In this document: positions 295 through 53,800 of the stretch, one piece after another
Layout: each line of letters begins with the position of its first letter
Numbering within the stretch: the first letter of the stretch is position 1
From: Lingula anatina
Taxonomy: Eukaryota > Animalia > Brachiopoda
Assembly: GCA_051362555.1 (NCBI GenBank)
Contig: CM120640.1
Location: 26,832,225 to 26,896,224 of the forward strand
Length of the DNA stretch: 64,000 bases
Reading direction: 5' to 3'
Position numbers and translations under genes: made by a program
The notes under the pieces: model-generated
Told to the model about the DNA's origin: nothing
The model's input: only the letters and a program-made list of their open reading frames with translations
Databases searched by the model: none

Positions 295-5519
<5,225 letters not shown>

Positions 5520-11458: not shown

Positions 11459-12084
11459 GATAGTTTGGCAGTTATCAGCTAGTAGAAAACTCTTCTCAGA
11501 CAGCGTACAATTTTTTTTCAAGACAGGTGTCCCATGCCAAGGAGAATATAATTTATTATTTTTTTACATCTATAGAATGCAGATCACTTGAATGATTTAT
11601 TTATATATTATATTTATATATTATATTTATATAATATATAAATATAATATATATATATTTATATTTATATATTATATTATATTTATATATTTCAAGAATT
11701 AAAAAAAGTGTTGCACCTGTGGTGAAAATGATTGAGCCACTCACTTATGGGGGCTTTATTGTTGTTATTGCGGAAAGGAATGTAAAATTTAAAAAGAGCC
11801 TATATTTTACTGATTCTTATTATAATTGATTGAGTAGCAGACCAGCAGCCAGCATGTCTGAGCATCAGTGTATGGTCTCCGGCCGTGAAAAAAAAATGAT
11901 TTGCACAATAATTTAATAATTTTGTTTTTTTTTTCTTTTTTATTATCTTTTTTGTTTACTATTCCTTATTTGACTCAAAAGTTCATCAAATATTCTTCTG
12001 AAAATAAATTTAGTTAGATCTACGCATAGACCTATGTATTTAAAAAATTTTAAGGACCGCGCGCATCACATTATTAATGTCAAT

Positions 12085-12231
12085 TTCTCGTTTTCAAACT
12101 GCGCATGCGCTGTAGAGGTTGGCACAGACCAACTTGGGCTTAGCGAATGTGAAAGTAAGTTTAAGGGTTGTTTCGGCGGTATTAAACAATTAATCTTCTA
12201 GGTTAAGCAGCCAGGGAGTAGTTCATTACAT
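12085..12231 (+). promoter_or_regulatory. Putative promoter and non-coding 5' exon(s) of paralog 1, with an NRF1-type site
   Basis: TGCGCATGCGC at 12100-12110 in a locally CpG-richer patch. GTAAGT donors at 12155 and 12232. The whole block is conserved at 31085-31430 upstream of paralog 2. Confidence 0.6.
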
Positions 12232-12701
12232 GTAAGTAAATTTCTTTGATCCGTAGGAACGGAAGTCTGACCTCCAGTGTGGTAAGTTAGAGTTGGTTGG
12301 GGCGAGACGTTGGTTTTTCTGTATCCCGCTCGGTATACATGTATTACCAGTGCAGGTAAATTGAGAAACGGACTCTTAACGGACTACTATACCTGTCACA
12401 CCGCCACATCACAAGGCCAGGATATACTTCTGGTCAATATCTATAATATAAGCTCTCTGGCCTATCTGTAATTAATCGTTGATACTGATATTAATAACCC
12501 GGAAGCTCAATAAAATTTTACTTTGCAAAGACGTGCAGTTTCTAATATGTACTAGCTGTGCCGTTTTAATAATAGACTATGATCGCGAATGGCAGGGTCA
12601 CGAGGTCTCTGCAGTAGTTTTCATTTCAATGAACGTGTCACCATGAACCTTATGATGGAACTAACAGATATGTATTTGTAGGAACACAAGACGAAAGAGC
12701 C

Positions 12702-13523
12702 ATGGCGTCAGAAAAGATGTTGCGAGATCAGCTGAAGGCACTCAGGGAGTGTGTGACCAAGAACCGAGTGGCATTGGTGACAGACTTGAATGTGGAAGGT
12801 CTTCTGTTGACTTTTTTGCAGCAACAGTCTCTTCTGACCGAATATCAAATAGATATAATAAGGGTACAGTATAATCAATTTATTGTTGTACCTGTATTTA
12901 GAAGCTTGAACAGTCTACATGTAGTTTGTTTCTTTAATTTGTCTTTTTCTTTTACTGGGAAGGGGAAAGGGCACATGTGGGGGGGGGGGGGGGGGTTACT
13001 TGCTTTCAACTAGATTTTTACCTTCTCTAACATAGGGCAGCTGAGTGATGATATCAACTTAATGCAAAAATTCACTCTAAACCTCTGTATTGAGATATCA
13101 GACGGAACCAGTTTAGTAAATCCTCTTGTCAAAGTACTGTACAGCCACCTACCCCACTTGGGGGTTTCCCAAAATGGTACTTTTTGTTGGACAAAGGCAA
13201 GAAAACCCTGTATCAAATGAAGTTTACACGTACAATTTTAAAAAGACCTAAGCTTACAAATACTCAGAAGTATTCATTGATCACTATATCTTTTTAAGAC
13301 ATTTCTTTTGTTGTAATTCCTTGTACAGTGTACCAAATATTATGCACATGATGCTTATGTATAACATTAAAGTTATGATTTTTGTACCTGCAGGCAGAGA
13401 AAACCAGGCATGACAAAGCTGAGAAAGTACTGGATTTCATCATAACCAAAGGTCCAGATTTTTTGGACAAGTTCATTACAGCATTGAGAGAAACGAGCCA
13501 AGACCATTTGGCTGACTTACTTG
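12702..13523 (+). other. CARD domain of paralog 1 (2 exons)
   Basis: ...VTKNRVALVTDLNVEGLLLTFLQQQSLLTEYQIDIIR|AEKTRHDKAEKVLDFIITKGPDFLDKFITALRETSQDHLADLL, a typical CARD pattern (NRxxLVxxL, LTxxQxxxI, T..KA..LLD.I..KG..F..AL..Q.HLA.LL). Confidence 0.88.
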
Positions 13524-15764
13524 GTATGTACTGTATATTTATTAACATTGCATTTATTCCAATTTTAAAACTTGTATTTTGTATTTTTGACTCAGAAGGT
13601 GTACATTTGTATCCTGTCAGCTGATATCATTATTCTTAGATGGCTCTCAGTTGCAAACATATAGGTCATGAACATAGCATTTGAGGGATTGAAATATCTT
13701 GACATACTTTAAGTGTTATTTGTAAGGTGATTGGAGTTTTATATTTATAGAGACATCAAAGAACTCTGCTCCACAGATTCCAGTGAGCATTCCAGGTGTT
13801 AAAAAGGAAACACCTTATACACACCCAATGACTGCTCCTGATACAAAGGCAGGGCATTTCTATAATGCCAGTACAATAAGTGTCCATCATCATTATGGGT
13901 CTGGAGATTCTGGTCGTGAAACCATCTACCAGCGAGAGCAGGCCATAAATCCCATGCAGATGGCATCTCCCCCAGGTGCAGTTAAGAGAAAGCCAGTTGG
14001 GCTGGTTGGATCTCCTGCTGTGAAGTTGCCACAGCGGGATTTAAGAGAGGAAATGGAAACAGAGCGCATTGGACAAACATTCCAGATTTTGGCAGAAGGC
14101 CCAAGAATAAAAGATTTGAGAGAAAAGCTGCTGTTAAGTATAAAAGCCCATGGCATGTCTTTCCATGGAGAAACACCTATGGATGGAAACTGTTTCTTTC
14201 ATGCTGTAGCAGATCAGTATGTTCGACTAGGACTTCAGCAAGGAATTACGCATAGAGAAATCAGAAAACTAGTTGTCAGTTATCTACAGGTAATCGTTCA
14301 TAATTAAGAAAACCAGAAAATTTATTTCAGTTAAAAAAATATGACTTCACACATCCTAAATGGACTTAAAAAGTGCATATCTTGCCACACCTGTACCAGA
14401 TATTCTGAGTCCAAGCAAAAGTATAACAAATTAAAGCCCATAAGGACAATCTGCAATTATAAGTTTAAGTTTAAAAATGCAGTTTTCCTAAGAGTTGTAA
14501 TATGTATTAGCCAAAGTTGTAAGCCAGGAGGCAATATAATTGAAATACAAATGTTGGTCTGATACCGCAGAGAAGGATGTTTTTGAAATTTTTTTAATTA
14601 GAGTGTGTTGGACACGTACATTACTGTATTTAGTGTGTTTCAGATTGATTATGAAGATGATAGTCAAATATTTCTCATGCTAAAATCATTTATACATATA
14701 TAATATATTGAGATCTAAGATCAGTGCATAAAAACTCTGTAAATGTCCTTGGAGCAATAATTTATCTATGCTACTGTACATACAGAAACTTTTCTATTTA
14801 TGGCCATTTTTTTTTTCTTTTTAAATTCATTTTATTTACTAATTTATTTTTTGTGATGGCACATGAAACTTAACTCATCTTGATTGTCCTTTTCAGCACT
14901 ACCAACAAGAGTACACACCACATATTAATGGTTCTGACTGGCCAGCATACGTCAGCAAAATGGCTCAGGATGGAGCTTGGGCTGATGACCTAACGATTGA
15001 CGCAACTTCTAAGGCCTTGGGGCGTAAATTGCTTATAGTATCCAGTTCTCCAGGGGCAAAAAATGGTGTCTTACAAACTATTTTTAACGGAAATGCTGAT
15101 GGGGAACCTCTCATGCTTGGTCGTTACCATGAAAATTATTATCAGAGTCTTGAAATGGCAAATGAAACAGGTTAACATTTTCCTTATGCATTTTTGTTTA
15201 AGATACATTTTGAGATGTGAAAGAAGTGTAATTTAAGATACATTTTGAGATGTTAAAAAAGTGTTAAGATGTTCTAAAGTTTTCAGGTGTTTGAACGTAC
15301 ATTCTAACTCTGATGAAAATAAGGATTGTGTAGCATCATTCCTTTGTCTCTTTTATTTTCACTAAGATTGGGCATCTATTCATCTTTCTGATTTTGAGTT
15401 GAATTCTTTTTTAATCTCAAGTATTTTCTTTATTTTTATCATATGCAAGATCTAAAAAGATTACAGACAGACTTGAAGTCAACCAGCTTCTCTGGCCCGA
15501 TGGAAATGGAAACGACGGATAGTAGTGGGACAGACTTTGTCTCCCAAATAACAGGTGTATTAGAGAAAGAAAAGGCAGGAAACAGGCAGACATCTTCAGT
15601 TTCTGCACCAGACATTCAGAGCAAGCCAAAACCAGAATTTAACCAAGCTATCAATGCTTATGAATTCAGTGAGAAGGACTTGGAATTGGTCACTAACTAT
15701 TTTTCTGAAGAAATTGCCTCTGAAGAAAAATGTGGGTTTGGTGTAGTGCATAAGGGTAGGTTGC

Positions 15765-15842
<78 letters not shown>

Positions 15843-18800
15843 AAGAGAGATAATGTGTTCATTATGTCAACCCTAATAATTTTTTCCAGTATAATCATAC
15901 AGAAAAGTGCATTTTATTATTTTTGGAAAAAAAGAAACATTTATTAATAAAAATTGTTAAAGATAATTTCAATGATGTCAGGCAAATGGTCTTGAAAATT
16001 AACTGTCAGTGATACTGGTAAACAAGTTTACAAAGAATACAAAGTGATGAAGTGAGGAAAATGTTTGATACGTTTTAGAGCTGTGATACTACATACTATA
16101 TGTGCTCACCTCAATGCAATTCTATGATTTTTATTTTCATTGCTCAAGGTGTTTTAAACCTTGAGCAAATACATGGATTGGAAGTTGCAGTTAAGAGACT
16201 TGCTGATAACAATGATTATCAAGGAACGCTGGAATTTGACAGGGTAAGTACAATTTACAAAATATTTTGAAAAGTTAATGGGAATATGTGTTACAGAAAG
16301 AGAAGTTAATGAAATTTTCCAAGCAAATTATATTATTCATAATAGTATTTTTGCTAGCTCTTCCATTGTTATACTTCATGTAAAATGTTATTAGTACCGC
16401 CAGCGTGTATGGTGGCGGTACTCATGATTGTAGTACTGACCACTCTCGTACAGCTCCACCGGCTCTGCAGGATGACGTGGGATACAAGTCACCATTACCG
16501 CTTCTCCTCCTGGACTGCTAGGACCTGTGTCCCAATCTCTTGGGTTTAGGTCACATATAATGTCAACTTGAACCCCCCTGTTTTTTTTTTTTTTTTTTTT
16601 TTTCTTTTCATTTGGTGCATTGGCCTGGGCATGACACTCAAAATTTTTTTAAAATTCAATGCTAAATATCTCCCAAACCAAAGAAATTATGGGAAAAATT
16701 GCTATTGAAGATTGATTGAAAGTCATATGTGGAGATTCCAAAATATGTGAAATACTCCAAAATTAGCAGAGATATGCCCATAGTTACTATTGAACTTGAA
16801 TGGGAATTCATATACTGGCAATCTAACTGTGACCTTGAAATTGACATTTGACCTACATTTCATGATGAACCGCACTTTGCAAATTTCACGTCCCATAGTA
16901 TATATGGGTGTATCTCTGCCAGTTTTTGAAATATAAGGGATACACCCATAGTTCCTATTCAAACATACACAAAATAAAAATATCATGTTGCCCATGTAGT
17001 CCAATGTCAACGACGAAATAAAAGGCAACACCACTAAACCTTAATATAAACAAACCTTAAAACATTGTTTCCATTACAGTATGTAAATACCTTAGATAGG
17101 AAGTCCTACTTTCAAAATCTTACTACAACCTTGAATTTGACCTTTTACTTTTCCCCACAATTTTTTTATAAATGATAATTACCTACAAAAAATGAAAACC
17201 CTAGTTTAATTACTGCATTTCCTTCAGCTTGTCAACCACAACACTACAGGTGGTGCCCCCCCTTCTTTTTCTTTCTCATACGAATACGCTTACTGCAGCT
17301 GGTGGTACAATACCAGGAGGCAGTATCGCCTCTCTGATCTAGTTTGATATGTTTTTGTGCACTGGTATTGTTCTAGGAGAAGGATTGGGCTAAGAAAAAG
17401 TATATTTATCTTCTGACTGCTATTGGAATTTGTGAGCAGTTAAAAGGGTAAGTAATTATATGAAGAAACATTTTTATCCACGTTATCAGTGTGAGCTCTT
17501 TTTAAAGATTTAAAAAATCGCTCTCTTGTTATGTCTTTTGACATTATTTTTTCATTATTAATTTAAAAATTGGAAAATGAACACACAAAGTAGATTTTTA
17601 CAACGCAGTCTTCTCTGCCCTGCTTTCACCTAGGATATGTGATTGAGCAACTTGTCCCTTTTTATTTTATGAAAAATGGGGGAATATCCGTGTCCTGTAT
17701 TTGTCATGTTTTGTTTGGTTGTGAAATTTCCAGTGTTCATATCAACCAGACTGAAACAAAATCAAGGAAATTTTATGTGCAGACACAGTAGATGCTGTAC
17801 ATATGGGCCATCACCTGTGTGGGTCATTTGCTGGCTAAAATGCAGGCTTAGTGGGTTTTCAGATTTATCATGTTTTTTTTTTCTTTCTTTACAGTATGTT
17901 CAATCATTATTTTTCTTGTTCTGAACACTTATTTTTCAGGCAATGTGTCTGTTTAAGCTAATCTTGCTGGAGTTACTGTGGGCCTTAAATGACTTACAGT
18001 TATTCCTTAAACTTTTGTGATAATTTTTCTCTATGCTTTTGATAATTTGAATATGGGCCAAAATTTACATATACTGGAAGCATTGAATAAGATTATTGTA
18101 ATGTATTATTTTTTCAAATTGCTTCTCTTTATGATAACTGACTTTATAACCTACAAGGTATTTTTTCAGTGAATACTCCAAGGCAGTGATGACAGTATAC
18201 ATGAAAGGGGGAACTTTGAAAGATCGACTTGAACAATCAAAGATTAGTGGTGAAAGTTTGGACTGGAAAACTCGCCTACGTATGAGTGTCCAGTTGGCTG
18301 ATGCAGTGAAATTTCTTCAGTCGGATGACCAGTAAGTTTTATTTACTTATCTGACTTGAAGGTACTCATAGACTTCTCTGTTTTTTAAACAAAGTTTATT
18401 CAAAATAAAGCACTAAAAGCATATAATGCTCTCTCTGGGGACCAGGAAAATTACAAAATACGCACGTGTGCACACACATTCACACACACAATTGCACACA
18501 CAAACACACACACAAAAGCGGGAAAAAAATAAAGATATGAAAAGGAATAAGAATATTTTTAAAATATATACATATATATATTTATATATAGTCATGACAA
18601 ATGTATATAGTCATGACAAATGAACTTATTAACAACTAATTTTATATATAAGCATGTTTGATATTATGTGATATTTTTCTTTGTACCATTATTATTATTT
18701 TCTACATATTCATATTCATGTTGCTGTACTTCTTTGTTTGGTATTTCAGAAGCAAGTGCATAGTTCATAAAGACATCAAATCCTCAAACATATTCCTGGA

Positions 18801-21800
18801 TGAGCATGAGAACATCAGGCTTGGAGATATGGGATTTGCAAAGATGTATTCTTTGAACTTTAAAAAGACCACAATCACCAAAAGTAAGACTAAATGTCTC
18901 TAGTTTAATGCTGTTTTATGTTAAAGTTGGTACACATGAAGTTTCTGTACATAAATAGAATTACAGCCTATTTGTTTTTGTTTCATGTTAAAATTAAAAT
19001 CTGAAGGTCTGTTCCAATTTCATCAGGTAACACCCGTCTGCACATCTACACATGCACAAACATGAATATATGTATAATTATTTTCAGCTATTCCTTTTGC
19101 TGCTGGCTATACAGACCCAAAACTTCATGAGGGACTTATAACCAAGACTACTGACTGTTACAGTATTGGGATAGGTAAATGTTACAAGTAAATTGTTTTT
19201 AGTATGTAGCATCAAGGCTTGTGGATAACTTTGTATCTTAAAAAGTGTCAATTATCTTTCTATTTTTCATTTTACTCAAATCAATACATTTCTCTTTACA
19301 AGTGAAGATTTATAGTTTTACATTGTAAAAAATTACTGGAATTGAACTTTTAGTATATTTTTATACATGGAAAATTTTGTTTAAGTGCTTGAGGAATTGT
19401 TGACGGGTGTTCTTGCCTCTGATCCTGACCCTAGTAGAGATAGCTCAGTTTCTCTTCACCTCTCCTGGAACAATTCTGGTGATGAAGAAAAGATTTTGGT
19501 AGAAAAGGGGGTTGAGCAGGTGAGTGTTTAATCTTTATCTTAAAGATGGGTCTGGCACAATTATAATGAGATATAATACATAAGACTGAATGAGTTTTTT
19601 TTTTTTTAATATCCATGTTGGACAGTGCATGTTCCTTACCTGTCAACACTGGAAATTGCTACAATGTCATGGGAGGTTGTGTGGCATTTGCAAACAACAC
19701 CCCCAACTCTACCATAGTAACTTTATTATTTTTAGACTCATTTTATGATCTCAAACAACTGATGGCAAGATCAGAAGATTTGTGGCCTGAATGCTGAGGT
19801 CTGGATTGAAGTGCCAAATCTGGAAACCCCTGGTAAAATTTGGAGAGTTGACAGGCCTGAATTTTTTTATAATGACAAATAATACTCTGTATTGCAGGGG
19901 TGGCCCAGAGAAATAAGCACAGAATTTGCTAAACTAATTAAGATGTGCAAAAAGGGAAAACCTGTGAAAAGAATCAAAATTGAAGAACTGTATGATGCAT
20001 TGTTGAAACTTTACAAGGTAAGTAATTCCTATTGACAAGTGAAGTTTAGATTGTATAGATTTTGTAAACTATATATTGTTTAATATGTAAGAATAAATAT
20101 ATAAGTTGGTGTATTCCTTTTAAATACATAAAGCCATTTTTTGCTTGGTCTAAAACCTAGTTGGTAAATGTTATCAAATTATCACAAGTTATTTTCACAT
20201 GCATTGTATTTGCCTGAAGAGGTACATTCTTATTAATTTATCTGTGTCATCATATTTTTGTTTACTTCAAATGTACTGAGTACTTCTGTTTGATAAAAAG
20301 ACAGGTTCCTTTAGAAAGTAAGCATGATCAGGTCATTTTTCCAGAACATTTTGTAAATTGTTGCATTGTTTTTGTCTATTTGGTGTCTGCATATTTGCCA
20401 GTTTGGATAAAGTAAAACCAGAATTAAAGAGGCACTTATTCAGTGACAATGTTTGGTCTTCTAGGGAGGTGTTGAAGGTGCACCTGTATATGCAGGGACT
20501 GGTGGTAAACCCATTCAGTCTGAGAAATGCCTCTACTGTTTGGTACACCAAGCAGGTATGTAAACTATATTACTGTAGAACATATTGAAGCTTGAACTAC
20601 AAAGATGAAAGGAGTCATATTGATTAAAGGATAATAGTCATATAAAAATCCATTTCTCGAATTCTGAAGATCCAGCACTTAATCTATACACTACAGTTAT
20701 GTTTTAATCGATCCCCGTCATTTAAAAATTAAAAAAACAATCTATTAGTAGACAAAAAGCGTTTTAGTAAACTTCACCTCAATATGCATAAATGAAGCAA
20801 CAGATCTGGGTCACGTGGTACTGTGACGACAATGTGGATAAAGGTCTAAGACTCAACTGAGCTGCAAGTGCATGCAGACAGAGAAGTTTAGGAAAGTTGT
20901 GTCGAACGGGGTTGAGCAATTTTCGTTATGCCTCAGTGTGTTGCCGTGGGATTCACCAAAATCGCAGCACTCGTTCACAATCTTTTCTTTGTCTGTGACG
21001 GTCTTCCGTGACTTAGTAACTTCGGTGACAATTGTTGCGATGCGATGAGATCATGGTCACCTCAGGTGGTTTAGATCATATCAAAAGCTGATAGTCTTTC
21101 AGATTAACTGTCATCAGTTGGCAAGCTTACTAATTGTTGATGCATTTTAAATGCATTGTAGTTGACCAAGAGCTCGTTAACAATAAAACCTGTTAATTAT
21201 GCACCGCTGCACTTCCCAAGCCAGGTAATAACAAGTATCAAACTCGTCTTGGTGGGCTTTCATATTTTTCAATATATCTCATTTATTTCATGGGGTTATT
21301 TTATTAGTACCACCAGCGTGTACGCTGGCGGTACTCATGGTTTTAGTCCCGACCCGTCTCGTCCGGCTCCGCCGGCTCCGCGTACTGGCGCCGGATACAA
21401 GTCACCGTTACCGCTTCTCCTCCTAGACCGCAAGGACCCCTGTCCCCATCTCTTGGATTTAGGTCACATATAACCTCAACTTGAACCCCCAGGTTTTTTT
21501 GTCTCAGTCGGTACATTGACCTGGGCGTGACGCTCCTTGAAATGCACCCTTGTCAAAATTTTTGAAAATTCAATGCCAATTATCTACCCTACGGAAGGAA
21601 TTATGGGAAAATTTTCTACAGACGGCTTTCCAAAAGTCATATGTGTAGATTTCAAATATGCCCTTGGATTTGACCTTTGACCTTAATTTCAAGGTCAAAC
21701 GGGCCAAAATTTTCAAAAAAATGAAATTTTTTTACGAAAAAAAATATTATTTGCACTGTTATTCAGACACTACACAGACTTAACCAATAATTATATTGGA

Positions 21801-24800
21801 AAGTGTTACCCTTTGGGTCATCTTTCATCTCTGTGAATTTGGGGTCAATCGGTGCATTTTCACAGGAGTAGCGGCCATAAAATACCGAAAATGAAAACTG
21901 TCTCTAATTCGGGAACCGTTAATGCTAGCGACCCGTTCTTTTTTGCATTTTGTAGAGCATGTAAAGCCCAACACTGAGAGTGGTCTCGGTTTTTTTGTAT
22001 TTCATATGGTTTTCGTGTTATGCTGTATTAAAAAGTACTTTGTGGTGGCACATTTTTTAACTCAGAATTGTAACATTTAGTCCCTTATATCTCCAAAACT
22101 GGCAGAGATAGGTCAATAGTTATTATTTAAGTTGAATAGGAAGTCATTTACTTGCAATCTAGATGTGAGCTTGAAATTGACCTTTGACCTACTTTTCACC
22201 ATGAACTGAACTTTGCAAATTTTTGTTCCCTTTTATCTCCAAAACTGGCAGAGATAGGTCAATAGTAACTATTGAACTTGAATAGGAGGTCACATACTGG
22301 CAATTTAACAGTGACCTTAAAATTGACCTTTGACCTACTTTTCACCATGAATTGAACTTTGCCAATTTTTGTTCCCTTTAATCTCCAAAACTGGCAGAGA
22401 TAGGTCCATAGTCACTATTAAACTTGAATAGGAAGTCACATACTGGCAATTAATCAGTGACCTTAAAATTGACCTTTGACCTACTTTTCACCATGAATTG
22501 AACTTTGCCAATTTTTGTTCCCTTTAATCTCCAAAACTGGCAGAGATAGGTCCATAGTTACTATTGAACTTAAATAGGAAGTCATGAACTGGCAATTTAC
22601 TGTGACCTTTAAATTGACCTTTGACCTTCCTTTTACTATGAACTGAACTTAGCAAATTTTCGTTTACCTTTATCTTCAAAACTGACAGATAGGTCCATAG
22701 TTACCATTGAACTTGAATAGGAAGTAATACACTAGCAATCTGTGACCTTGAAATTGACCTTTGACCTACTTTTTATGATGAACTGCTTTTTGCATGTTTT
22801 CTGGCCTTTAAATCTGCAAAATTGGCAAAGAAATGTCCATGGTTGCTATTGAACTTGAATAGAAATTCATATACTATGATATTGAAATTGACCTTTGACC
22901 TACTTTTTCACCATGAACTGAGCTTTGCATATTTTCTTGCCTCTCATATCTTTAAATCTAGCAGAGATGTGCCCATTGTTTCCCCTAGGTTTTCTCTTTT
23001 GTCAGCATATATGCACCATTGACAACACATTTCAAGGAAAACCAATAGGCCTTTTGTCTAGAGAATACAGTAGTGAGCAAGGGTAGGCAAATGCAAGTCA
23101 ATTTGAAAATCTGCTTGATTGTATCATTTTTAGTTATATTTTTTGCATATTTTGAGAACTCTTGTTGATTGCATCTTATAGAGCTTGTCAAACACCAGAC
23201 TGGTGATGGTGTCCCTTTTAGGAGGGGGGGGGGGGGTCCATACGAATGCGCTTACTCCAGCTGGTGGTACAATATCTGGAGGCGGTATCGCCTCTCTGAT
23301 CCTCTAGTTGGTATTTGTAAATGACGTTAAATATCAATATTTAAACAATTAAGATCAAACACGGTCGCGAACATTAATAAAAGAAATTGCTCTCAGGGTA
23401 TCTTGAAGCATGCGTATGCCCAGGCATTACTTCCTTGGAAGAAAACGTGTTGAGGAAAAACAGGAAAAAGAGCATTATATTAAAGAAAAAATGGGAACTG
23501 CTGTAATAAAATGGTTCGTAATCCTAATACTTTTATGCTTTGAAGATTTGTTTCTGAAGGTTATTTCTTCTGAAATATTAAATAATTTAAAAGGTTTATC
23601 ATTTTATAACTTGAAACGCAAGTTCTGCGTCTGTATGCAAAACTTTTTGCAGATTTGTAAGCTTTGTCAAACCCAAAAACAGGTAGCAGATCAAGGTAAA
23701 AGAGTATTGTTTGCTACGGGTAGCACGGAAAAAAAATCATAAATTTAATGTGTTTACTAAATGTGCAGTTTTACGTACGTTAGTATATTTTAAATTATGC
23801 ATGGAGATTTAACCTGGTAAGGGATGTAAGAAAGCCACAAACGGATTTTTTAAAAAGAATGTTGGGTGTAAAAAAAGAGCACTACTGATAACTTAGTTCA
23901 TTGTATATAACTTAGTATGTTATGAAAAATGGGAGATACCCAATTCTTTTAAGTATGAGCCTACAATTTTTTAATATATTGATTTAAATCCCCTCTTCGA
24001 AAAATTGTATTATAAAACCGTGCTATAAAGATCTACTCAAGAAAAAAATTGCTAGGCTAAAATTGAGTACGGAATGAACTGGAGACCCTTGGCTTGTCAT
24101 TAAGTTTTCACGAAAATATGTCAGATAACTTTATACTGTCCTTGAAAGAGTAAAGATTGAAAGATAATTTTAGACAAATAGACAAACTTTGACGGAGGAA
24201 ATATCAACAAAGAGTAAAGGGCTATTGTGCCAACATCTTGTTGAAATTTTTACACTGCAATTCTATTTAAATAAGCTAAGGAACTAATTGCCAAATTTAG
24301 ACTTTCATCACACAACAGGGGCGTAACCAGACCTGCAAAAGTTGTACGCACAGATTAAAAAAAAGTACAAGCACGTACAGCAAAATGTAGACTAACGCAA
24401 AACATGAAGGACAGCGTAATCACAGCAAATGTACCTCATATAGTAGCTTAATTTCCATTAATAATAAAATCATCATTTAAGTCAAAAATATTCTCGCGAT
24501 TTAATAAATATTCTAATGTACCCAGAACGGTATATTTATTTAAAAGGAGGCTAACTGAAATATTGTTTTATTATTTGTTTGTGAAAATTGCTCATGTCAC
24601 CCTGTTAGTTTGGAGGTCTAAGCTGGATCAAGTCCATGTTAAAATTCCTATGAAGCTGTGCAGGAAAAAATCTTCCTTTGTTTCTCTAGCTCCTCGATAA
24701 ACCTGGTGTTCAGATTGTATCTAGTACCCCCAGGTCTGCGGGAGCTGCTCTTTGAAACCAACGCACAGGTAGATTTTTACCTGAGATAAATATCGCCAGC

Positions 24801-26915
24801 CATTTAACCCTCTAATTAAGAGGTAAAGGAAGTTCCAGTTAGATGGATGATTAAGATAGGACTGGTAAAGGGCACTGTTTACCTCTGTTTAATAAAAGTA
24901 TGCAAGACGGAGTGTCAGCGGTTTAATAAAATTAATTGAATTTCACAAATAACATGGACCTCATATGCAGTAATCAACAGAACCCTTAACTCATTCAAAT
25001 GCAATGTTTTATACAACTTGGGATAACCATAATTAAATGCTTGTTAAAGAATTGACTAGACGGGAAATGGTTTTACACAGCTTCACGAGGATTAAGACCC
25101 CTCGGGTAAGAGATTTGAATGAGTATAAACTTTTATCAGAAGCCAGAGAAGTCATCTTACAGGTAGACAATGCAGCTCAGTTTGACAGCTAAGCATGCTC
25201 TGTTCTCCGGTGGCTTGATTGTCGTCATCAGACCACGTGACCACGTAGCTCATTAACTCCCAGGCCGAGCAAATAGGACGTTTTATAAAGCCAAAAATTT
25301 ACAAAATGAGCTTTTAATTTGTGTATTTGGACAAAGATATCGTTAATTGGGCATGTTTTCTGAAGAATATGTTCCGTTGAGGCCATTATGACGGCATGAC
25401 GCAAATCCTTTAAGTTATACTTTTTGTGTGTATTTATGAATTTACCATAATGATAAAAATACTGTATAAATGCCATGGGCATTTTCTATTTCAGCAAACA
25501 GTCAGCTCAGTTGTGGATGCAAGTTCCTTTGTACTCACTGCATAGTTGAACGCACCAAGGAGAACAAGAGCATATGGTGCATGTTGCATATGGAAGAAGT
25601 TGAATTTAAAAAACGTAATATGTTTGTGTGTACTGTATGTGTATGTGAAATTCTCCAGTTTCATATTTGCAAAAATCACATCACTTTACAAGGCTTACTT
25701 GCAAATCAATAAAAACTGAATGAATCTGAATATCTTTTTACTTAAATCATATTATAAAAAGCAGTATCAAGAAGGTTGGCAGTACAAATGACAAATCATG
25801 AAGATGATTTTCTCATTCGCCTGCAAGTGTAATCTGTGTCCTTAATTTCTTTTTAGAAAACTTATACTGTGATGGAAATTTTACCAAGCTCTTTGATGCC
25901 AGTTACCCAGTGGTTTCACTTGTCAAGTTGATCAATTCCAAGATAGACAAGCATTGGAAATCAGTTGGCCTGATAAAAGTCATAGATAGATGTGGTGAAG
26001 ACCGTGCCGTTGCCACAGGGTTCAAAATAGGTGGAAATTATTTGATGACGAATCGTCACATTGTTAACAGTTTCGGAGAAGGTAAAGTGATGATGCTAAC
26101 AAGATGTGTTTCAAAGGTCTTTTGAACTAAAAGTTTAAATGTATTTATGATGGTTTACTGTTGCATATCAAAACATTTTATAAGGGTGCCTTGTAGTATT
26201 TGTGAAAACTGAGAACATGCTTTTATTTAAAGCTCATTATGATATCTTTAGAAATACACATTGAAGTATTTTGACAATTGGGTACTAAATCAGGAGGTGG
26301 GGGCTGGGGGAATATTGCATTTACTTCATTTTTTCCTGCTCTACAGGTTTCCGAGGAGTCAAGGTAGAATTTGGATATTTGCAACAAACTTCAAGAACAA
26401 CAACATATAAATTTGTCAATATGCCATGGTACAGTGAAGTATTGGATGCAGCTTTGTTCCACATTCACAACGTAGACAGCCATGATGTTGTACCAGATTT
26501 AGACTGTGATATAGCAGATGTCGAGCCAGGAAAGGATGTCTGTATTGTAGGACATAATAAATGTGATCCATTAAGATATGACCCAGATACAAAAATACTT
26601 AGCAATTTCGATGTTCAAAAAGACATAGATTTCACACTGAAAACCTACCCTTCAGCCAGTTTTACAAATGCATATGATAGAAATCGACAGTTTATGAAGT
26701 CAAGTTTTATGCATGGGGCATCTGGGTCACCTTGCTTTGATGAATATGGTAACCTTTCCCTAATGTATACTGCAGGTTATCCTGATAACTATAAAGAGCT
26801 GCGTATGGCACAAACTGTATTTGAAGAGGGTGTTAAAATGAGATGCATATATGAAGAGTTAAAGAAAGAAAAGCCAGAGTTGGTGTCAGATCTGTTCCCA
26901 AATGTCCGCATTTGA
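12702..26915 (+). CDS. Multidomain protein, paralog 1: CARD - OTU-like - Pelle/IRAK-like kinase - variant RING - FAM111-like trypsin serine protease (~1072 aa)
   Basis: Coding exons 12702-12863, 13394-13523, 13751-14289, 14897-15170, 15450-15755, 16149-16243, 17377-17447, 18170-18331, 18750-18883, 19088-19174, 19386-19519, 19898-20017, 20465-20555, 25495-25614, 25857-26081, 26347-26915. All introns are GT-AG and phases are compatible; total 3219 nt = 1073 codons with no internal stop. Every non-OTU exon is conserved in paralog 2. Confidence 0.85.
14076..15156 (+). other. OTU-like cysteine protease (deubiquitinase) domain, paralog 1 only
   Basis: TPMDGNCFFHAVADQ (Cys codon 14191-14193), HREIRKLVVSYLQ, YVSKMAQDGAWADDLTIDATSKALG, LMLGRYHENYYQSL. 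One internal intron at 14290-14896. Confidence 0.88.
15655..20017 (+). other. Pelle/IRAK (RLK-Pelle-like TKL) kinase domain, paralog 1
   Basis: YEFSEKDLELVTNYFS, GFGVVHKG, VAVKRL, EFDRE, YMKGGTLKDRL, LDWKTRLRMSVQLADAVKFLQ, IVHKDIKSSNIFLDE, RLGDMGFAK, GYTDP, DCYSIGIVLEELLTG, WP. Confidence 0.88.
16388..17344 (+). mobile_element. HINE family A (Helentron-associated, DINE-1-like), internally deleted copy in a paralog 1 kinase intron
   Basis: 5' TTATTAGTACCGCCAGC plus palindrome; 3' subTIR GCTGGTGGTACAATA, stem-loop GAGGCAGTATCGCCTC and CTAGTT end; about 2 degenerate central repeat units. Confidence 0.8.
20628..25409 (+). mobile_element. Kolobok-like DNA transposon (decayed), 4.8 kb, in the RING intron of paralog 1
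   Basis: TTAA TSD at 20624-27 and 25410-13. Termini AGGATAATAGTCAT...ATGACGCAAATCCT (imperfect TIR, AGG/CCT). The empty site GATTAAGTTATAC is present in paralog 2 (~62122-62134). Possible decayed THAP start MPQCVAVGF at 20928. Confidence 0.8.
21301..23309 (+). mobile_element. HINE family A, full-length, nested in the Kolobok-like element
   Basis: 5' subTIR and palindrome (TATTAGTACCACCAGCGTGTACGCTGGCGGTAC), CCGGCTCCG mini-repeat, about 7 central ~146-bp repeats, 3' subTIR GCTGGTGGTACAATA, hairpin GGAGGCGGTATCGCCTC, end CTCTAGTT. Confidence 0.85.
25950..26915 (+). other. Trypsin-like (Trypsin_2 / FAM111-like) serine protease domain, paralog 1, with intact triad
   Basis: SVGLI...ATGFKIGGNYLMTNRHIV (His 26057-59), SEVLDAALF (Asp 26445-47), IVGH, FMHGASGSPCFDEYGNLSLMYTAG (Ser 26721-23). 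The motif layout resembles the FAM111A/B protease. Confidence 0.88.
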
Positions 26916-27751: not shown

Positions 27752-28330
27752 CTAATAATTATTACTTGGAGATCTACAATTACATTTCTTATCTTGAGTG
27801 TTAACTGACATGTTTTTGAGAATTTTTTTATTGTGACCGTGAATGATTTGCTGTATGTTTTTCATACAACAGTAACTTACTTTTACAGTCGAGCTGTTGA
27901 ATAATCGGTAAAGCTTGCTTCCTCGAGGGAAATGTTTGTCTAGCAACTGAAGGAATATATGCCCGATTTTGTTCTTACATTTTTCGAGTATGGTGGGTTG
28001 AACCAAATAAGTTTCCTGTTTCGTCTTTTCTTTTCACTGGGACGAGAGCTGCTTGCTTTAGAGTTATTACCCAACGACATTACGGTATGTCCCGCAGTTT
28101 GAAGCGCCGTTGCATAGGCCTATACGTTATCTGATCCTTCTGCTACCACCCCTTCAGTCGAAAGGGATTGCAATCTTTCGCCGATGGCTTTAGGAATGTT
28201 CCTTATTATTGCGGGGGGGGGGGGGGGGGGGGGGGGGTGATTTGAGTTTTTGTGAACATAGATCGGCTGGGCGTTCGGTTTTACGAACGGCCTGTGTTTC
28301 CCGGATTCTAAGTCTAGGACCCCATTCCCA
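27752..28330 (-). mobile_element. Penelope-like retroelement fragment (RT C-terminal / linker region), frameshifted
   Basis: Minus-strand peptides LDLESGKHRPFVKPNAQPIYVHKNSNHPP..IIRNIPKAIGERL, LIWFNPPYSKNV and IGHIFLQLLDKHFP...LFN..TVKVSYCCMKN...IIHGHNKKIL...CNCR, spread over different frames. Confidence 0.85.
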
Positions 28331-31084: not shown

Positions 31085-31430
31085 TTTTCTCGTTTTCAAA
31101 CTGCGCATGCGCAGTAGAGGTTGGCAGAGACCAACAGCGAATTGTGAAAGTAACATTAATAGTTGTTTTGGCGATATTAAACAATAAATCTTCTAGGTTA
31201 AGCAGCCAGGGAGTAACTCAGTACATGTAAGTAAATTTCTTTGAGCCGCAGGAATGGAAGTCTGACCTCCAGTTTGGTTAGTTAGAGTTGACATTTGTGA
31301 GACGGTGCAGGTGAATGGCCGCAGGTGAATTGAGAAACTACTCTAAGCGGACTACTGTTCCTCTCACACCGCCACATCACAAAGCCAGGATATACTTCTG
31401 GTCAATATCTATAATATAATATAATATAAT
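31085..31430 (+). promoter_or_regulatory. Putative promoter and 5' non-coding exon of paralog 2 (duplicate of 12085-12460)
   Basis: Palindromic ACTGCGCATGCGCAGT at 31100-31115 (NRF1-type) and donor ACAT|GTAAGT at ~31227. Colinear with the paralog 1 upstream region, and homology resumes at ~47597. Confidence 0.6.
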
Positions 31431-47889: not shown

Positions 47890-50800
47890 ATGGCATCAGG
47901 AAAGATGTTGCAAGAACAGCTGAAGGCACTCAGTAATTGTGTAACCAATAACCAAGTAGAATTGGTGACAAACTTGAATGTGGACGTTCTTCTGTTGTCT
48001 TCTTTGCAAGAACAATCTCTTCTGACACAATATCAAATTGCTGTAATAAAGGTAGAGTAATCAATTTATTGTTATATTAAAAAGCTTGTACAGTAGTTTG
48101 TTTCTTTGTTTTTTGCTTTTACTGGAAGGGGGAAGGGCACATGTGTGGGGTTTACTTGCTTCCAACTAGATTTTTACTTCCAAGTTTTCCACCAGATGCC
48201 AGCTGAGTGATGATTTCAACTCTGCAAACATTCTCTCTAAACCTCTGTATTGAGATACCAGATGGAACCAGTTTAGTAACTCCTCTTGCTAAAGTTCAGC
48301 CACCCACCTGACCTAGGGGTTTCCCAAAACCACTACGTGTGTGTGTGATGGAAGGGGGGGGGGGGCATAGGGACTGTTCACAATATATTTTATCGGCTTA
48401 ATGCCAATGCACCAGGACTTGCTGACTACAATCAGTTTTAACAGACTGACATGCCTCCTCTTGTTAACAGCGTACTCACATAATCACCAGCTTTGATTTA
48501 TGATGTTGTTGTGTTACATTTGCATGGAGTAAAGCCCCCTTTACACTGGACGGCGTCCTTTCTGCGTCCAGCAGTACGGCCCCATTTGAGAGTTAAAAAA
48601 TTATAATACTTTTCATGCCGACAACTGGCCGATCACTGAGCATTCATTCTGCTACAAAATCAATGCTCGTGCCTCCTTATTAAGACCACAGCGATGCCAA
48701 ATTTCATGGTCGCAGAAAGGACGCCGTCCAGTGTAAAGGGGGTATTAGTGTGCAGTAGTAGTGGTCCTTCAAATACTAGTATATCATACACTAGAGTAAG
48801 TAGTTAAGATCAGAGCAATTAATTGACTTGATCACCTGCCAAGAGATTGGTCAGGGACTAGTTAAGTGTCAGTGCCTGAGCAGTTGGTAATAAAGGACTC
48901 CGAAGAAAATCAGACATGCTGAAAAATTTTCAGAATGGCCAGACATTTGGACTGGCAGTAATGAAAAATTTGCCGGACCGAATGGATTTTTGTCAGGCCG
49001 AAAATCACCCTATTTGTTCGAGACAGATACTACCAGTACGTTTAGGTAGCTTACTTTGTTTGTGGATGTGATAGGTTTTAAATGGATGGGAAAAACACTT
49101 TGGGTTTTTTATAATTTTATTGGTGAATTATGTCTAATGATGAATGTAAATTCAAAATTGTGGTTCTTAAAACTCTTGTCAGTCCTTTAGACTGACCAAG
49201 TCCAATTTTTTACCCGTCCAAAAAAATGCTTGGTCATGACCGATCGGACTGACAGTTTCAGCAAGTCTGGAAGATAGATTATGCTAGAAATGTAATGTAA
49301 TGTGGCTTCAAATGGTGTAAGACACAAAGCTGTTCATTTTTAGCTAGATATATATGGGAGCTGAGACATGGGTGCGAAGTAGAAGCAGATTTTCCAACAG
49401 CATGGTAAGACAATGTCTGTACATATAGCCATCACCTGCGTCTTTTGTTGCTGTTGTGGAAAACCATTGTTCTTTTTGGCTTGAAACTTACAGAACTGAT
49501 GAATATCCATTATACACAGGTCAAGTTAAAAAATCAGCTTTTATTGTGCATTGTGTAATAAAGTATCAAAAATGGAAAGGAACTCATATCATTGCAGTTC
49601 GTCAGATTCAATCATTCACTAAGTTAAGAATCTCAGAATGGAACAAGTTGGACATTTAAATTTGTTCTATTGATATTTTTCCTTTGACAACATATTTTTT
49701 AATTGATCATATAAGAATTACAGTAAATCGCTTATTTTGTTTTATGTAAAAAAGGTGTTGAAAATGGAAATAAACTCTTTTCAATACAGTTTTCTCTTGT
49801 TTAGATTTTGGGATTTTCAAAGTGTGACTCTGAACTCTATGGGCTAGACACATTTTCTGAATATCCATGATAGTTTTATTTTATCATTAAAAAACTGATG
49901 GTTATTATGCTGTTAAGCATTGTGTAATATTGCATCAAAATTGAACAAAACCCTATTTTGGGCACTGCCTCCGTAGTGACCGTGAAAGGACAACCATGTC
50001 ACTTGCTTTTTTCACACTTAAAGGAAAGAAACATAGGACTGAAATACAGCTTCAGTTGGAAAATCTGTCTCATTAGTTAATTTTCTGGAAGTTATAGAGT
50101 TTTTTTTGTGAAAATTTTTATCTTTCACATACTGGAATTTTCAATGTGGGACTTAGAGCTCCCTTGGGCATGAAGCCCAGTGGTAATCAAATTTTCTTAA
50201 TGTCCATGTTTTTAATAGTAGATATTTAAAAATTGGTGGTATGTATACAGTTAATCATTATGTAATGGTGCATCAAAATTGACAAAAACCTACTTTATGC
50301 ACTGCCACCATTAACTTTATGGAAAGAAAACTGTTACTTTCTATTTTTTCAACTACATGTAGTCTTACAAGAATGATTCTTAGGATTGACATACAGCTCA
50401 TATTAGAAAACCAGCTCTATTAGATTATCATTTTTATTAAATTTATGCATTTTTTGTGAAATTTTCATTTTTCTCATTCTGGCACTTTCTAAGTATACAC
50501 TTGAACTCTGATGGGCCTGAAGCCTTATGCTTTTACTTTCGTCAGTGTTACCTGTTGTGCATAATTAAGATTTGATGTTGACCATGCAGTTAAACAAAAT
50601 GTATTATTGTATCAGAATTGGTAGTCTCCTATTTTGTGCATTATTGTTTTGTGCTTTTCTTAAGGTGTGACTTATGGGCCTGAAGACCTTTGAATGGGTC
50701 AGTCTGTAAATTTCCCTTGGGTATCACTAGGCTAAGTTCAGAGTTATAAAGTCATTTGCCTAATTAATAGGCCATTAAATGAGATTACATAAAGCAAACT

Positions 50801-53800
50801 TGTTGATATTTCCCTGTAAACTCCCAAAGGTTAAGCTCTCTGCTAGATTAATAATAAGGAAGCAGTGATAATTATGCAGGTGAATTTTGTTTAATATTGC
50901 AAATAAGTTTTTAATATATATATATATATATCAAACTCAAAGATTAAAAGTTTGAATAGCAGCTTCATTGGAATTATATTTACCTCTGCCAAGGAGGTTA
51001 TGTTTTCACCCCTGTTTGTCTGTCATCAACATTACTGAAAAAGTTATGTACCGATTTTGATGAAATTTTCAGGAACTGTCAGAAGTGGGTCAAGGAGGAC
51101 AATGATTAGTTTTTGGTGGTGGTTCGGATCAATAATCTATCAATAATCAATAATAATAAAAAATTGCTGCCTTGGCAGAGGTCTGCACTCTCAGAGTGCT
51201 TTTCTGGTTTTATGTTTTCCTTTTTAATTTTTTCTCAAACACTGGCATTTGTGACTTTTAACTCCCATCCGCCTGTGGCTCTGCACATTTTCTGTATTTC
51301 CACATAAGCAGTTGTATATTGGTTTTTATGTCTTTAAACATTATGTAATATTATTTTATGCACTGTCATCATTTTCAAATATTGGGACTTTCATCATGTG
51401 AATTTGAACTCTCATGGTCCTGAAACTGTAATCTTATCGAAGGGATGGATTGAGACCATCTTCTGGGTCTTCCGGAAGACAGTCAGGTTTTTAAGTTTAT
51501 ATTGACCGATATCTATTTTTTTTTCTGTTGGAAGACCATCAAAATGGAGGATGGATCAACATAGATACTTTGGAATACTGTCAGAAAATATCTCTGGGTC
51601 CGCTCCTGTTATTGACCATGTTACCTGTTGTGCATGATTAAAATTCAGTGATGACTAACAGTGCTATATATAAGCATTATTTATTATTGCATCAAAATTG
51701 ACAAAATGACCTATTTTGCATCTTTATTTTCTGTTTTTTGTCTGTACATATGACAGCTTTGCTGCCTTGTTTTCATTTGGCATTTTGAGCAGATAATGTT
51801 TGTAAAAATTTGGGTCATATGAAAACCTAATACAAAGATTGAAAGTGAAAAATTGTGCTTTTATTATTTGTCATCTTTCTTTTAAATAACTAGCTTCATA
51901 GACTGACAGCTAAAAATGACTAGCCGGCTTTATGTTTCACACTGTTCGACATCACATATGTTGCGCAATTTGTCTTCTCGAGGGTCTTTTATTATAAGAA
52001 CCAACTTGGAAATTATTGGTTGGAATTCATCACAGTTGGGTCAGAGTTCGGAGACGTGCACAGAAATAGCAAGGGAAATATCTGTGAATATTTAATGAGC
52101 AATCAATGTATTGGCCCTTGGTAGAGGGTACTTTTTGTTTGACAAAGGCAAGAAAACCTTGTATCAAATTAAGTATACACATATAATTTTCAAAAAGACC
52201 AAAGCTTACAAATGCTCAGTGGAATTATTTGATCACTATCTCTTTTTAAGACATTTCTTTTGTTGTAATTCCTTGTACCAATACGTTGTACAAAATATTA
52301 TGCACATGATGCTTATGTATACCATTAAATTTATGATTCTTTGTGATGATGTACCTCTAGGCAGAGAAAACCAGGTTTGACAAAGCTGAGAAAGTACTGG
52401 AATTCATTCAAACCAAAGGTCCAGATTTTTTGGACAAGTTCATAACAGCATTAAGAGAAACAAGCCACGACTATTTGGCTAACTTGCTTGGTATGTACTG
52501 TATATTTATTAACGTTGCAATTCTAAAACTTGTATGGGTATAATATTTTTGACGTGGAAGGTGTACATGTGTATCCTGTCAGCTGATATCATTATTCTTA
52601 GATGTCTCTTAGTTGCAAACATATATAGGTCATGAACATAGCATTTGATGGATTGAAATGTCTTGACATACTTTAAGTGTCATTTGTAAGGTGATTGAAG
52701 TTTTATATTTATAGAGACGTCAAAGAACTCTGCTCCACAGATTCCAGTGAGCATTCCAGGTGTTAAAAAGGAAACACCTTCTACATTCCCAATGACTGCT
52801 TCTTATCCAAAGGTAGAGCATCATTATAATGCCACCACAATAAATGTTCATCATTATGGATCTGGAGATTCACGTCATGATACCATCAACCAGCAAGAAC
52901 TGGCCAAAGATCCCATGCAGTCGGCACCTCCCCCAGGTGCAGTTAAAAGAGAGCCAGGTGGGCTGGTTGGATCTCCTGCTGCGAAGTTTCCACAGCGGGA
53001 TTCAAGAGAGGAAATGGAAACTGGGTGCATTGGACAGGCAAATGAAACCGGTTAACATTTTCATTATGCATTTTTATTAAAGATACATTTTGGGACGTGA
53101 AAGAAGTGTAATTTAAGATACATTTTGAGATGTGAAAGAAGTGTAATTTAAGATACATTTTGAGATGTGAAAGAAGTGTTATGATGTTCTAAAGTTTTCA
53201 GGTGTTTGAGTGCACATTCTAACTATGATGAAAATAAGGATTGTGTAGCGTCATTCCTTTGTCTCATTTATTTTCACTAAGATTGGGCATCCATTCATCT
53301 CTCTGTTTTTGAGTTGGATTCTTTTTAATCTCAAGTATTTTCTTTATTTTTATCATATGCAAGATCTAAAAAGATTACCGTCAGACTTGAAGTCAACCAG
53401 CTTCTCTGGCCAGATGGAAATGGAAACAACGGATAGTAGTGGAACAGACTTCATCTCCCAAATAACAGGTGTATTAGAGAAAGAAAAGGCAGGAAACAGG
53501 CAAATGTCTTCAGTTTCTGCACCAGACATTGAGAGAAAGCCAAAACCAAAATTCAACCAAGCTATCAATGCTTATGAATTCAGTGAGAAGGACTTGGAAT
53601 TGGTCACTAACTGTTTTTCTGAAGTAATTGCCTCTGAAGAAAAATGTGGGTTTGGTGTAGTGCATAGGGGTAGGTTACATTTTTTGTCAAGAGAGAAAAT
53701 GCCTTCATTATGTCATCGTAATTCATTTTTTCCAGTATAATGATACAGATAAATTACATTTTATTATTATTTTCGCTTAAACTTTTTTTTATATTTTTAT

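Follow-up and report, generated by a model that had tools for sequence, protein, structure and literature searches.

Can a single animal gene join a CARD, an OTU domain, a Pelle/IRAK-like kinase, a RING-like finger and a FAM111-like serine protease, and if so, what might its product do? The question is raised by positions 12702 to 26915 of a 64,000-nucleotide stretch of the Lingula anatina genome (contig CM120640.1; the window), an intron-rich animal sequence with a guanine-cytosine content of about 35%, for which an earlier note had claimed one gene of 16 exons and 1072 residues. The gene is referred to below as copy 1. Splicing of its 16 coding exons, from the ATG at 12702 to the TGA at 26915, gave 3219 nucleotides encoding 1072 amino acids with zero internal stops, and a splice-site check found GT..AG borders at all 15 introns. 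A CARD, an OTU-fold domain, an IRAK/Pelle-type kinase, a RING-like finger and a FAM111A-type protease lie in one reading frame. The interpretation that we prefer, and to which we give an about even chance, is that the protein is a CARD-recruited serine protease switch, activated by dimerisation, in innate immunity or cell death. The coding exons are as follows.

12702..12863, forward strand: exon 1, start codon and first half of the CARD (residues 1-54); Pfam CARD E 0.005.
13394..13523, forward strand: exon 2, second half of the CARD (residues 55-97); Pfam CARD E 1e-7.
13751..14289, forward strand: exon 3, linker and first half of the OTU domain, Cys245 codon at 14191-14193; Pfam OTU E 8e-4.
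14897..15170, forward strand: exon 4, second half of the OTU domain, Tyr358 codon at 15137-15139; Pfam OTU E 1e-5.
15450..15755, forward strand: exon 5, linker and start of the kinase with a degenerate glycine loop (residues 460-469).
16149..16243, forward strand: exon 6, kinase VAVK with Lys486, codon at 16193-16195.
17377..17447, forward strand: exon 7, kinase N-lobe; conserved in copy 2 and the RefSeq models.
18170..18331, forward strand: exon 8, kinase hinge and start of the C-lobe; Pfam PK_Tyr_Ser-Thr, acceptor set from copy 2.
18750..18883, forward strand: exon 9, catalytic loop HKD with Asp588 and DMG with Asp606; Pfam Pkinase E 2e-9.
19088..19174, forward strand: exon 10, end of the kinase activation segment (GYTDP).
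19386..19519, forward strand: exon 11, kinase C-lobe; its letters occur in loose read ends before exon 12.
19898..20017, forward strand: exon 12, end of the kinase; reads cover the copy 2 equivalent.
20465..20555, forward strand: exon 13, first Cys pair of the RING-like finger (C760, C763); spliced reads on copy 2.
25495..25614, forward strand: exon 14, remainder of the RING-like finger (C775, C777, C781, C784, C797, H800), from ligand spacing, no Pfam RING.
25857..26081, forward strand: exon 15, predicted dimer helix (residues 822-842) and protease His876 (26057-26059); FAM111A profile match.
26347..26915, forward strand: exon 16, protease Asp917 (26445-26447), Ser1009 (26721-26723) and stop; Pfam Trypsin_2 E 3e-4, under the cut-off.

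When the 16 exons were scanned one by one, Pfam placed the CARD in exons 1-2, the OTU domain in exons 3-4, the kinase in exons 8-9 and Trypsin_2 in exon 16; no family was found in exons 13-14, where the RING label is taken from the Cys/His spacing. Two independent Lingula anatina models, XP_013387807 (1073 amino acids) and XP_013388096 (1075 amino acids), aligned end to end with spliced copy 1 and have the same architecture. Both passed the Pfam cut-offs for CARD (57.5 bits, cut-off 23.9, with zero Death matches), OTU (54.8 and 48.7 bits, cut-off 23.3), kinase (78-96 bits) and Trypsin_2 (35 bits). The RefSeq entries for these Lingula proteins are named 'uncharacterized'. A word-indexed search with exon 16 returned one protein, XP_013387807, among 268 candidates, XP_013388096 being the second model in its cluster. 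Copy 1 is 98-100% identical to XP_013387807 in the first 400 residues and 78-89% identical in residues 641-1040.

The exon chain is repeated downstream in a tandem copy.

47890..63617, forward strand: copy 2, 15 coding exons, 909 amino acids, CARD-kinase-RING-like-protease; defined by splicing, with reads on the last five exons.

All 14 introns of copy 2 have GT..AG borders and there is no internal stop, in agreement with the earlier description of an open second copy minus OTU. Copy 2 is without the 1081 bases equivalent to 14076-15156; exon 3 is thereby fused in frame to the end of exon 4, and the OTU domain, and that domain only, is gone. Copy 2 also served to place one splice site: an exon 8 acceptor at 18158, which would give 1076 amino acids, was discarded in favour of 18170 because copy 2 has an extra T at that place, which would break the frame.

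Reads from four of nine RNA runs with the same species label were aligned to positions 61390-63640 of copy 2 at 85% likeness, a region that covers its last five exons (the equivalents of exons 12-16). The four runs gave 45, 93, 138 and 66 reads. Depth sat on the exons, and six bins in introns 12 and 15 were empty in all four runs; in two runs a low depth of 0.4-2.2 was seen in four other intronic bins. The exon 12-13 joint was crossed by 2 and 8 reads in two runs, the first letters of exon 13 being variant there, and by more reads in the other two, the exon 13-14 joint (GT..AG) by 2, 11 and 4 reads and by 7 more that carry variants, the exon 14-15 joint by 2, 3 and 12 reads, and the exon 15-16 joint (GT..AG) by 2 and 6 reads plus variants. 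In three runs, loose read ends before exon 12 carry exon 11 sequence. No pile-up of molecule starts or ends was found between the kinase and protease exons of copy 2 in the four runs. Since the joints are spliced from exon 12 through exon 16 and no such pile-up occurs, the kinase, finger and protease are on one transcript in this family; the separate kinase and protease transcripts that the note named as a refutation were not seen on copy 2.

Only 39 of the 342 reads were at least 99% alike to copy 2, and the reads derive from several alleles or paralogs. Exons 13-15 are too similar between the copies for reads to be assigned, and six reads of one run carry the longer exon 16 segment of copy 1. 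The sets of variants in the protease exons differed from run to run, several of them adjoining the catalytic His and Asp, and in-frame length variants occurred near 63340; the run-specific variants at 61390-63640 suggest that there are many alleles or further copies.

It might still be argued that annotation had joined neighbours, a CARD-OTU gene and a kinase-protease gene, or that the fusion is a functionless accident. The read support is confined to exons 12-16 of copy 2 and the RefSeq models are predictions, as such an explanation would have it. However, every intron is canonical and in frame in both copies, the introns separating the CARD, OTU and kinase exons are short (227-607 bases), a paralog of 35% identity has the same domain order, and the OTU domain is lost exactly in frame in copy 2. 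The overall ratio of nonsynonymous to synonymous substitution rates (dN/dS) is 0.53, with an interval below 1. An artefact or chance fusion is therefore regarded as extremely unlikely, and the claim of a single gene is upheld by the splicing, the RefSeq models and the reads on copy 2.

What kind of protease does the gene encode? Trypsin_2 was found in the RefSeq protein at 35.2 bits against a Pfam cut-off of 27.6. With exon 16 alone as query, FAM111A entries (8S9L, E 1e-7; 8S9K, E 4e-7) were the sole PDB matches below E 0.5. A profile of the finger and protease matched FAM111A at E 2.5e-19 and 4.2e-19, the top two of 11 PDB matches, the next being at 0.0026, and the match extended over about 230 positions, from helix 1 through the last helix. 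By these PDB matches, FAM111A is the closest characterised relative of the protease, about 16 orders of magnitude above the next PDB match, and the earlier assignment to a FAM111-like family holds. The triad of His876, Asp917 and Ser1009 is unbroken in copies 1 and 2 and in all three Lingula RefSeq loci. The first Ser of GASGSP aligned with the position mutated to Ala in the FAM111A S541A structure, and Ser1009 is for this reason taken as the catalytic Ser. No Pfam match to a ubiquitin-like (UBL) domain or a PIP/PCNA-binding part was found in the RefSeq protein, which is not an orthologue of FAM111A over its whole length. No signal peptide is apparent at the N-terminus, and the protease exon had zero matches in phage records.

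In FAM111A, a dimer formed through helix 1 orders the oxyanion hole and is required for substrate cleavage, as stated in the available text of PMC10920703. When two RefSeq protease domains (residues 805-1070) were folded together with ESMFold2, the pair score was 0.69 vs 0.00 for the best of three controls; the dimer runs shared at least 71% of contacts, with a predicted local distance difference test (pLDDT) score of at least 83. Among microbial proteins, 21 of 30 pairs of known structure and 0 of 23 single chains attained the pass mark; among eukaryotes the figures were 17 of 29 pairs and 0 of 30 single chains, with 7 of 16 for animals and 1 of 7 for pairs without an older solved relative. 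The modelled interface is the segment that matches helix 1 of FAM111A, and as a like complex has already been solved, the pass may reflect memory or likeness only. In comparison with the RefSeq protein, 29 of 30 interface residues were identical in each copy; outside the interface the count was 195 of 236 for copy 1 and 187 of 236 for copy 2, with permutation p values of 0.03 and 0.01, respectively. In the ESM Atlas, residues 750-1073 fell near Trypsin_2 clusters (0.88-0.91, with 121-146 of 256 features in common), which are to be read as leads only.

The protease is preceded by a CARD that was weakly matched in the PDB, the best match of a CARD half-exon being the caspase-9 CARD (E 0.03), and by an OTU-fold domain of the small OTUD type, the best PDB profile matches of which were OTUD3, OTUD5 and OTUD1; exon 4 alone had zero PDB matches. 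The note had treated the ubiquitin modules as built-in regulators; that the OTU domain works as a deubiquitinase is not supported. The catalytic Cys245 is retained, but the column of the catalytic His is occupied by Tyr (Tyr358 in copy 1) in all three OTU-bearing family members; in the alignment the same column is His in OTUD5, an echinoderm OTU and a bivalve OTU. The aligned His of OTUD5 is presumably the catalytic one. His355 lies near Tyr358 and could in principle take its place. Copy 2 and the paralog of 35% identity have no OTU domain. OTU domains without a catalytic triad are known, FAM105A being an example given in the accessible part of PMC3705208. The domain is likely a pseudo-deubiquitinase, which would bind ubiquitin chains rather than cut them, and the slot that it occupies may be a ubiquitin-binding one, because relatives carry UBA-like sequence at the same place. 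The closest OTU domains, from Amphiura and Sinanodonta, occur as tandem OTUs that keep the His and have other fusion partners, a kinase and a DUF4559/HEPN-like part in Amphiura and NHL-like repeats in Sinanodonta. Their varied partners suggest that the OTU domain is a mobile module among invertebrates of marine and fresh waters.

The kinase gave its best PDB matches to SYMRK, BRI1 and IRAK4 (E 5e-24 to 1e-22), with BAK1 also near the top, and it was assigned by similarity to these PDB entries to the receptor-like kinase (RLK)/Pelle/IRAK class, as had been supposed. No RIP kinase was found among the 60 best of 1178 PDB matches. Lys486, Asp588, Asp606 and the Glu of helix C are retained. The glycine loop reads EEKCGFG, the first two of its three glycines being gone in all Lingula members. 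The catalytic loop has HKD in copy 1 vs HRD in copy 2 and the paralog. IRAKs carry a Tyr gatekeeper; the position is Thr in this kinase and Tyr in the distant paralog. A RHIM core was absent by pattern from all five Lingula proteins. The finger that follows has the ligands C-x2-C-x11-C-x-C-x3-C-x2-C-x12-C-x2-H, all eight of which are kept in six of six aligned proteins; ligand 4 is Cys and ligand 8 is His, a variant of the C3HC4 / C3H2C3 RING spacing. Pfam RING had zero matches in the exons or the RefSeq proteins, and zf-C3HC4_3 appeared at E 0.79 in the hemichordate protein described below only. The finger is a motif-level variant: the zinc-ligand spacing agrees with the RING first proposed, while the Pfam family and the standard ligand set do not.

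Is the architecture found elsewhere? A HMMER search with the whole protein against 1.84 billion representatives gave 35,746 matches, the best 150 of which were mostly kinases; stand-alone FAM111-like proteins would fall outside these 150. Among them Lingula LOC106174184 (1172 amino acids, 35% identical) was the one further protein with a match across kinase, finger and protease. This paralog reads CARD-kinase-RING-like-Trypsin_2 without an OTU domain and keeps the same order, the triad and the eight zinc ligands. A rescan of 154 proteins from the search found the protease fusion in Lingula only. In word-indexed searches the C-terminal region returned no protein among 776 shorter candidates, and the alignment profile just its own two members among 5629 longer candidates, both of which are weak as negatives where relatives are less than about 35% identical. 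No description of the architecture was found in the literature searched, the scope of which lay outside subscription papers and supplements (the tables of PMC8195603 could list such proteins), nor any mention of the six accession numbers there. The modules are known, as is the logic of a protease recruited by a Death-fold domain; their combination is undescribed within the literature searched, where no characterised family of this kind came to light.

A relative without the protease was found in the hemichordate Ptychodera flava. XP_070576017 reads Death-Death-UBA-like-kinase-RING-like and is 32% identical to the Lingula paralog across kinase and finger (E 7e-49). In a tree of 150 kinase domains, five Lingula sequences and the Ptychodera sequence lay on one side of a branch with a Shimodaira-Hasegawa-like approximate likelihood ratio test (SH-aLRT) value of 98; the tree omitted three proteins without a 200-residue kinase stretch and three isoforms and included no named animal IRAK (IRAK4, Pelle), and two other rows that were checked were plant proteins. 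The hemichordate protein, Death-Death-kinase-RING, itself looks like an undescribed signalling protein. Its residues 301-319, which follow the Death domains and precede the UBA-like stretch, contain a RHIM-like core (VQMG) by pattern, with no Pfam RHIM. One of its RefSeq isoforms also lacks the Death-fold domains at the N-terminus; such a loss may be a regulatory option that it has in common with the Lingula paralog.

These relatives bear on whether the protein is chiefly a kinase. It could be an IRAK/RIPK2-like signalling kinase or scaffold that acts below a CARD receptor and has NF-kB or MAPK as its output. The protease would then be a later addition, which would cleave its own chain or another component of the pathway and so adjust or terminate the signal, as MALT1 does. 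The hemichordate relative consists of two Death domains, a UBA-like stretch, kinase and finger and has no protease, and because its kinase groups with those of Lingula, the core would seem to work without the protease. Furthermore, Lys486, Asp588 and Asp606 are retained, and in the kinase dN is below dS (dN/dS 0.42, with an interval of the difference that excludes 0). However, two of the three glycines of the loop are lost across all Lingula members, the protease triad is retained across 35% identity, and the kinase tree that supports the grouping is without named animal IRAK4 or Pelle. A primarily kinase-based role is possible, though we doubt it; it is moreover compatible with the protease-switch interpretation, the two not being mutually exclusive.

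The evolution of the locus raises another alternative, that of a guard or trap. Between copy 1 and copy 2, dN/dS is 0.53 over 909 codons, and the interval of dN-dS lies wholly below zero. In the finger and exon 15 the copies hardly differ (dS about 0.02, vs 0.10-0.24 in the other parts), a pattern consistent with either recent gene conversion or an effect of the assembly, and OTU identity is 82-84% between models that are otherwise 92-100% identical. The Lingula family is thus a patchwork of near-identical blocks beside diverged ones, possibly in part through assembly. A dead OTU domain, an odd kinase or the protease might be bait for pathogen effectors or viral protease inhibitors, the binding of which would set off outward signalling through the CARD, then an output rather than an input. 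The catalytically incomplete OTU, gained or lost between copies and more divergent than its surroundings, would suit a bait, as would the patchwork family, from which most reads are less than 99% alike to copy 2; inhibitors of human FAM111A that are encoded by viruses have also been reported. But no domain shows dN/dS significantly above 1 (in two sequences only), the patchwork may partly be an assembly effect and there is no known pathogen partner. Such a role is judged unlikely.

A non-immune role was weighed as well, for example the removal of DNA-bound protein obstacles in the manner of FAM111A, or signalling in development, with the CARD serving for localisation or as a scaffold. FAM111A acts at replication forks besides its antiviral role (accessible text of PMC9798293), and transcripts of the Lingula family were present in all four RNA runs. 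On the other side, Pfam finds no UBL or PCNA-binding part. All the other domains belong to families known in immune and death signalling. A function outside immunity therefore appears very unlikely.

How, then, would a CARD-recruited, dimerisation-activated protease operate? As CARD biology suggests, recruitment and clustering would be the task of an upstream CARD platform, for instance a CARD-NACHT-LRR receptor or CRADD; clustering is predicted to pair the protease domains via their N-terminal helix; and the active protease might then cleave a host effector or a pathogen protein. The kinase and finger, likely inherited from an older Death-fold/kinase/RING signalling protein, may tune the assembly or relay a signal. 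Lingula possesses CARD-NACHT-LRR receptors and GSDME (as far as the available text of PMC11508797 goes) and has CRADD while lacking APAF-1 (likewise, PMC11463336), so candidate upstream partners exist. One is needed, because the protein has no sensor domain; to call it all-in-one was an overstatement. The retention of CARD, kinase, finger and protease triad at 35% identity is counted in favour of the switch. In bacteria, moreover, CARD-like domains fused to trypsin-like proteases are required for gasdermin cleavage, according to the part of PMC10312443 available.

Several observations weigh against this interpretation. FAM111A dimerises without any CARD and its autocleavage is independent of the dimer (both from the accessible part of PMC10920703), so clustering need not be the trigger. 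The excess of identity at the modelled interface vanished in comparison with the distant paralog (9 of 30 vs 79 of 236, p 0.72, alignment uncertain), and the permutation test ignores covariation of buried or adjacent residues. AlphaFold2, run on the finger and protease with an alignment of four rows, gave a mean pLDDT of 32.3 and an unusable model. RefSeq lists a CARD-less isoform of the Lingula paralog, so the CARD is possibly not always present. The UBA matches in the OTU slot of the paralog and the hemichordate relative are weak (E 0.065-0.099) and under the cut-off, and the absence of any domain with dN/dS significantly above 1 in the two-sequence comparison of the copies leaves positive selection unsupported. 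Finally, kappaB-like sites were found only at 13160-13170 and 48316-48325, at the same place of intron 1 in both copies, and are not above chance (24 of 100 shuffles). Activation of the protease by clustering, the mechanism envisaged at the outset, gains plausibility from the presence and predicted pairing of the FAM111A-type dimer helix and loses some from the CARD-free dimerisation of FAM111A.

A more specific version is offered tentatively, since we consider it rather improbable in full: a caspase-independent, inflammasome-like effector, in which a CARD platform would cluster the FAM111A-type protease, which would dimerise and cut a death or antiviral effector, GSDME for example, while the IRAK-type kinase would read ubiquitin chains through the dead OTU domain. 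Such a logic has up to now been described for the CARD-trypsin proteases of bacteria.

Comparison with known systems places the protein between several of them. FAM111A and FAM111B (8S9K, 8S9L) share the Trypsin_2 domain with its His-Asp-Ser triad and the helix-1 dimer, here predicted, whereas their N-terminal part consists of a PIP box and two UBL domains in place of CARD-OTU-kinase-RING-like. Coral and lancelet members without UBLs are mentioned in a review of FAM111 evolution, the available portion of which names no Death-fold or kinase fusion (PMC9798293). IRAK4, Pelle and plant RLK kinases likewise have a Death-fold domain N-terminal to the kinase, and the Lingula kinase matches SYMRK, BRI1 and IRAK4, but the Lingula protein has a CARD for the Death domain, lost glycines, and a finger and protease C-terminal to the kinase. 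The CARD initiator caspases (caspase-1, -2, -9 and the lophotrochozoan caspase-Y) and MALT1 similarly carry a Death-fold prodomain on a protease, and are activated by induced proximity. In contrast, the Lingula protease is of the trypsin-fold serine type, with kinase and ubiquitin-related modules between it and the CARD, and the caspase Pfam family had no match in the RefSeq protein. The bacterial CARD-like/trypsin-like proteases of gasdermin anti-phage systems and the bDLD-trypsin fusions differ from the Lingula gene, which has 15 introns, an animal-type CARD, a FAM111-type protease and a kinase; convergence is taken as the default, descent not having been sought. RIPK2 also combines a CARD and a kinase in a single chain, its CARD being C-terminal and that of Lingula N-terminal; RIPK2 acts downstream of CARD-bearing NOD receptors (available text of PMC9573974). 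XP_070576017 of Ptychodera flava shares the kinase and the finger with the same eight zinc ligands, while two Death domains stand in for the CARD and the OTU domain and protease are absent.

A FAM111-type protease, which in humans is associated with DNA replication, antiviral restriction and genetic disease, is here placed under a CARD and beside an IRAK-type kinase. Since FAM111A is switched on by dimerisation, the fusion offers a testable mechanism in which CARD clustering would be the on-switch. The proposed role is that of caspases in animals and of trypsin-like proteases in bacterial gasdermin systems. If the inflammasome-like version above were true, it would be the first CARD-serine protease switch in an animal and would suggest innate immunity as an old setting for FAM111 proteases. 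The series from the hemichordate protein (Death-Death-kinase-RING) to the Lingula paralog (CARD, with protease added) and to this locus (with or without a dead OTU domain) may be read as the stepwise assembly of a protein. The significance is tempered by restriction of the fusion to a single genus and by the odd domain mixes of marine invertebrates, which are common among immune genes of sessile species (PMC8195603, text available in part).

Two further features, similar to each other, lie upstream of the copies.

12084..12295, forward strand: putative promoter of copy 1 together with an untranslated first exon; the element TGCGCATGCGC and a GTAAGT donor-like site lie within it.
31086..31290, forward strand: putative duplicate of this block 5' of copy 2, with 88% identity to 12084-12295.

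From its position and similarity, this block, some 210 bases long and placed ahead of each copy, is probably a duplicated promoter with an untranslated first exon.

The remainder of the window contains several repeats. A 146-base tandem repeat (5.5 to 11.6 copies) occurs at 22081-22875, 36355-38056 and 55241-56508 within a longer dispersed element, which is inserted in different introns of copies 1 and 2. A second dispersed family, whose internal units measure 159 and 337 bases, lies at 8746-10434, 43146-50658 and 59125-60770. The segment 31489-32047 is self-inverted (about 560 bases, 82% identity) and is possibly a miniature inverted-repeat transposable element. A short open reading frame at 27752-28033 on the reverse strand had zero Pfam matches; we take it to resemble a fragment of a Penelope-type retroelement. 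Rfam gave zero matches within the window. Finally, exons of a phosphatidylinositol 3/4-kinase-like gene, presumably similar to PI4K-alpha, lie 5' of copy 1 at 1260-4158 on the forward strand (Pfam PI3Ka E 2e-5, PI3_PI4_kinase E 0.007).

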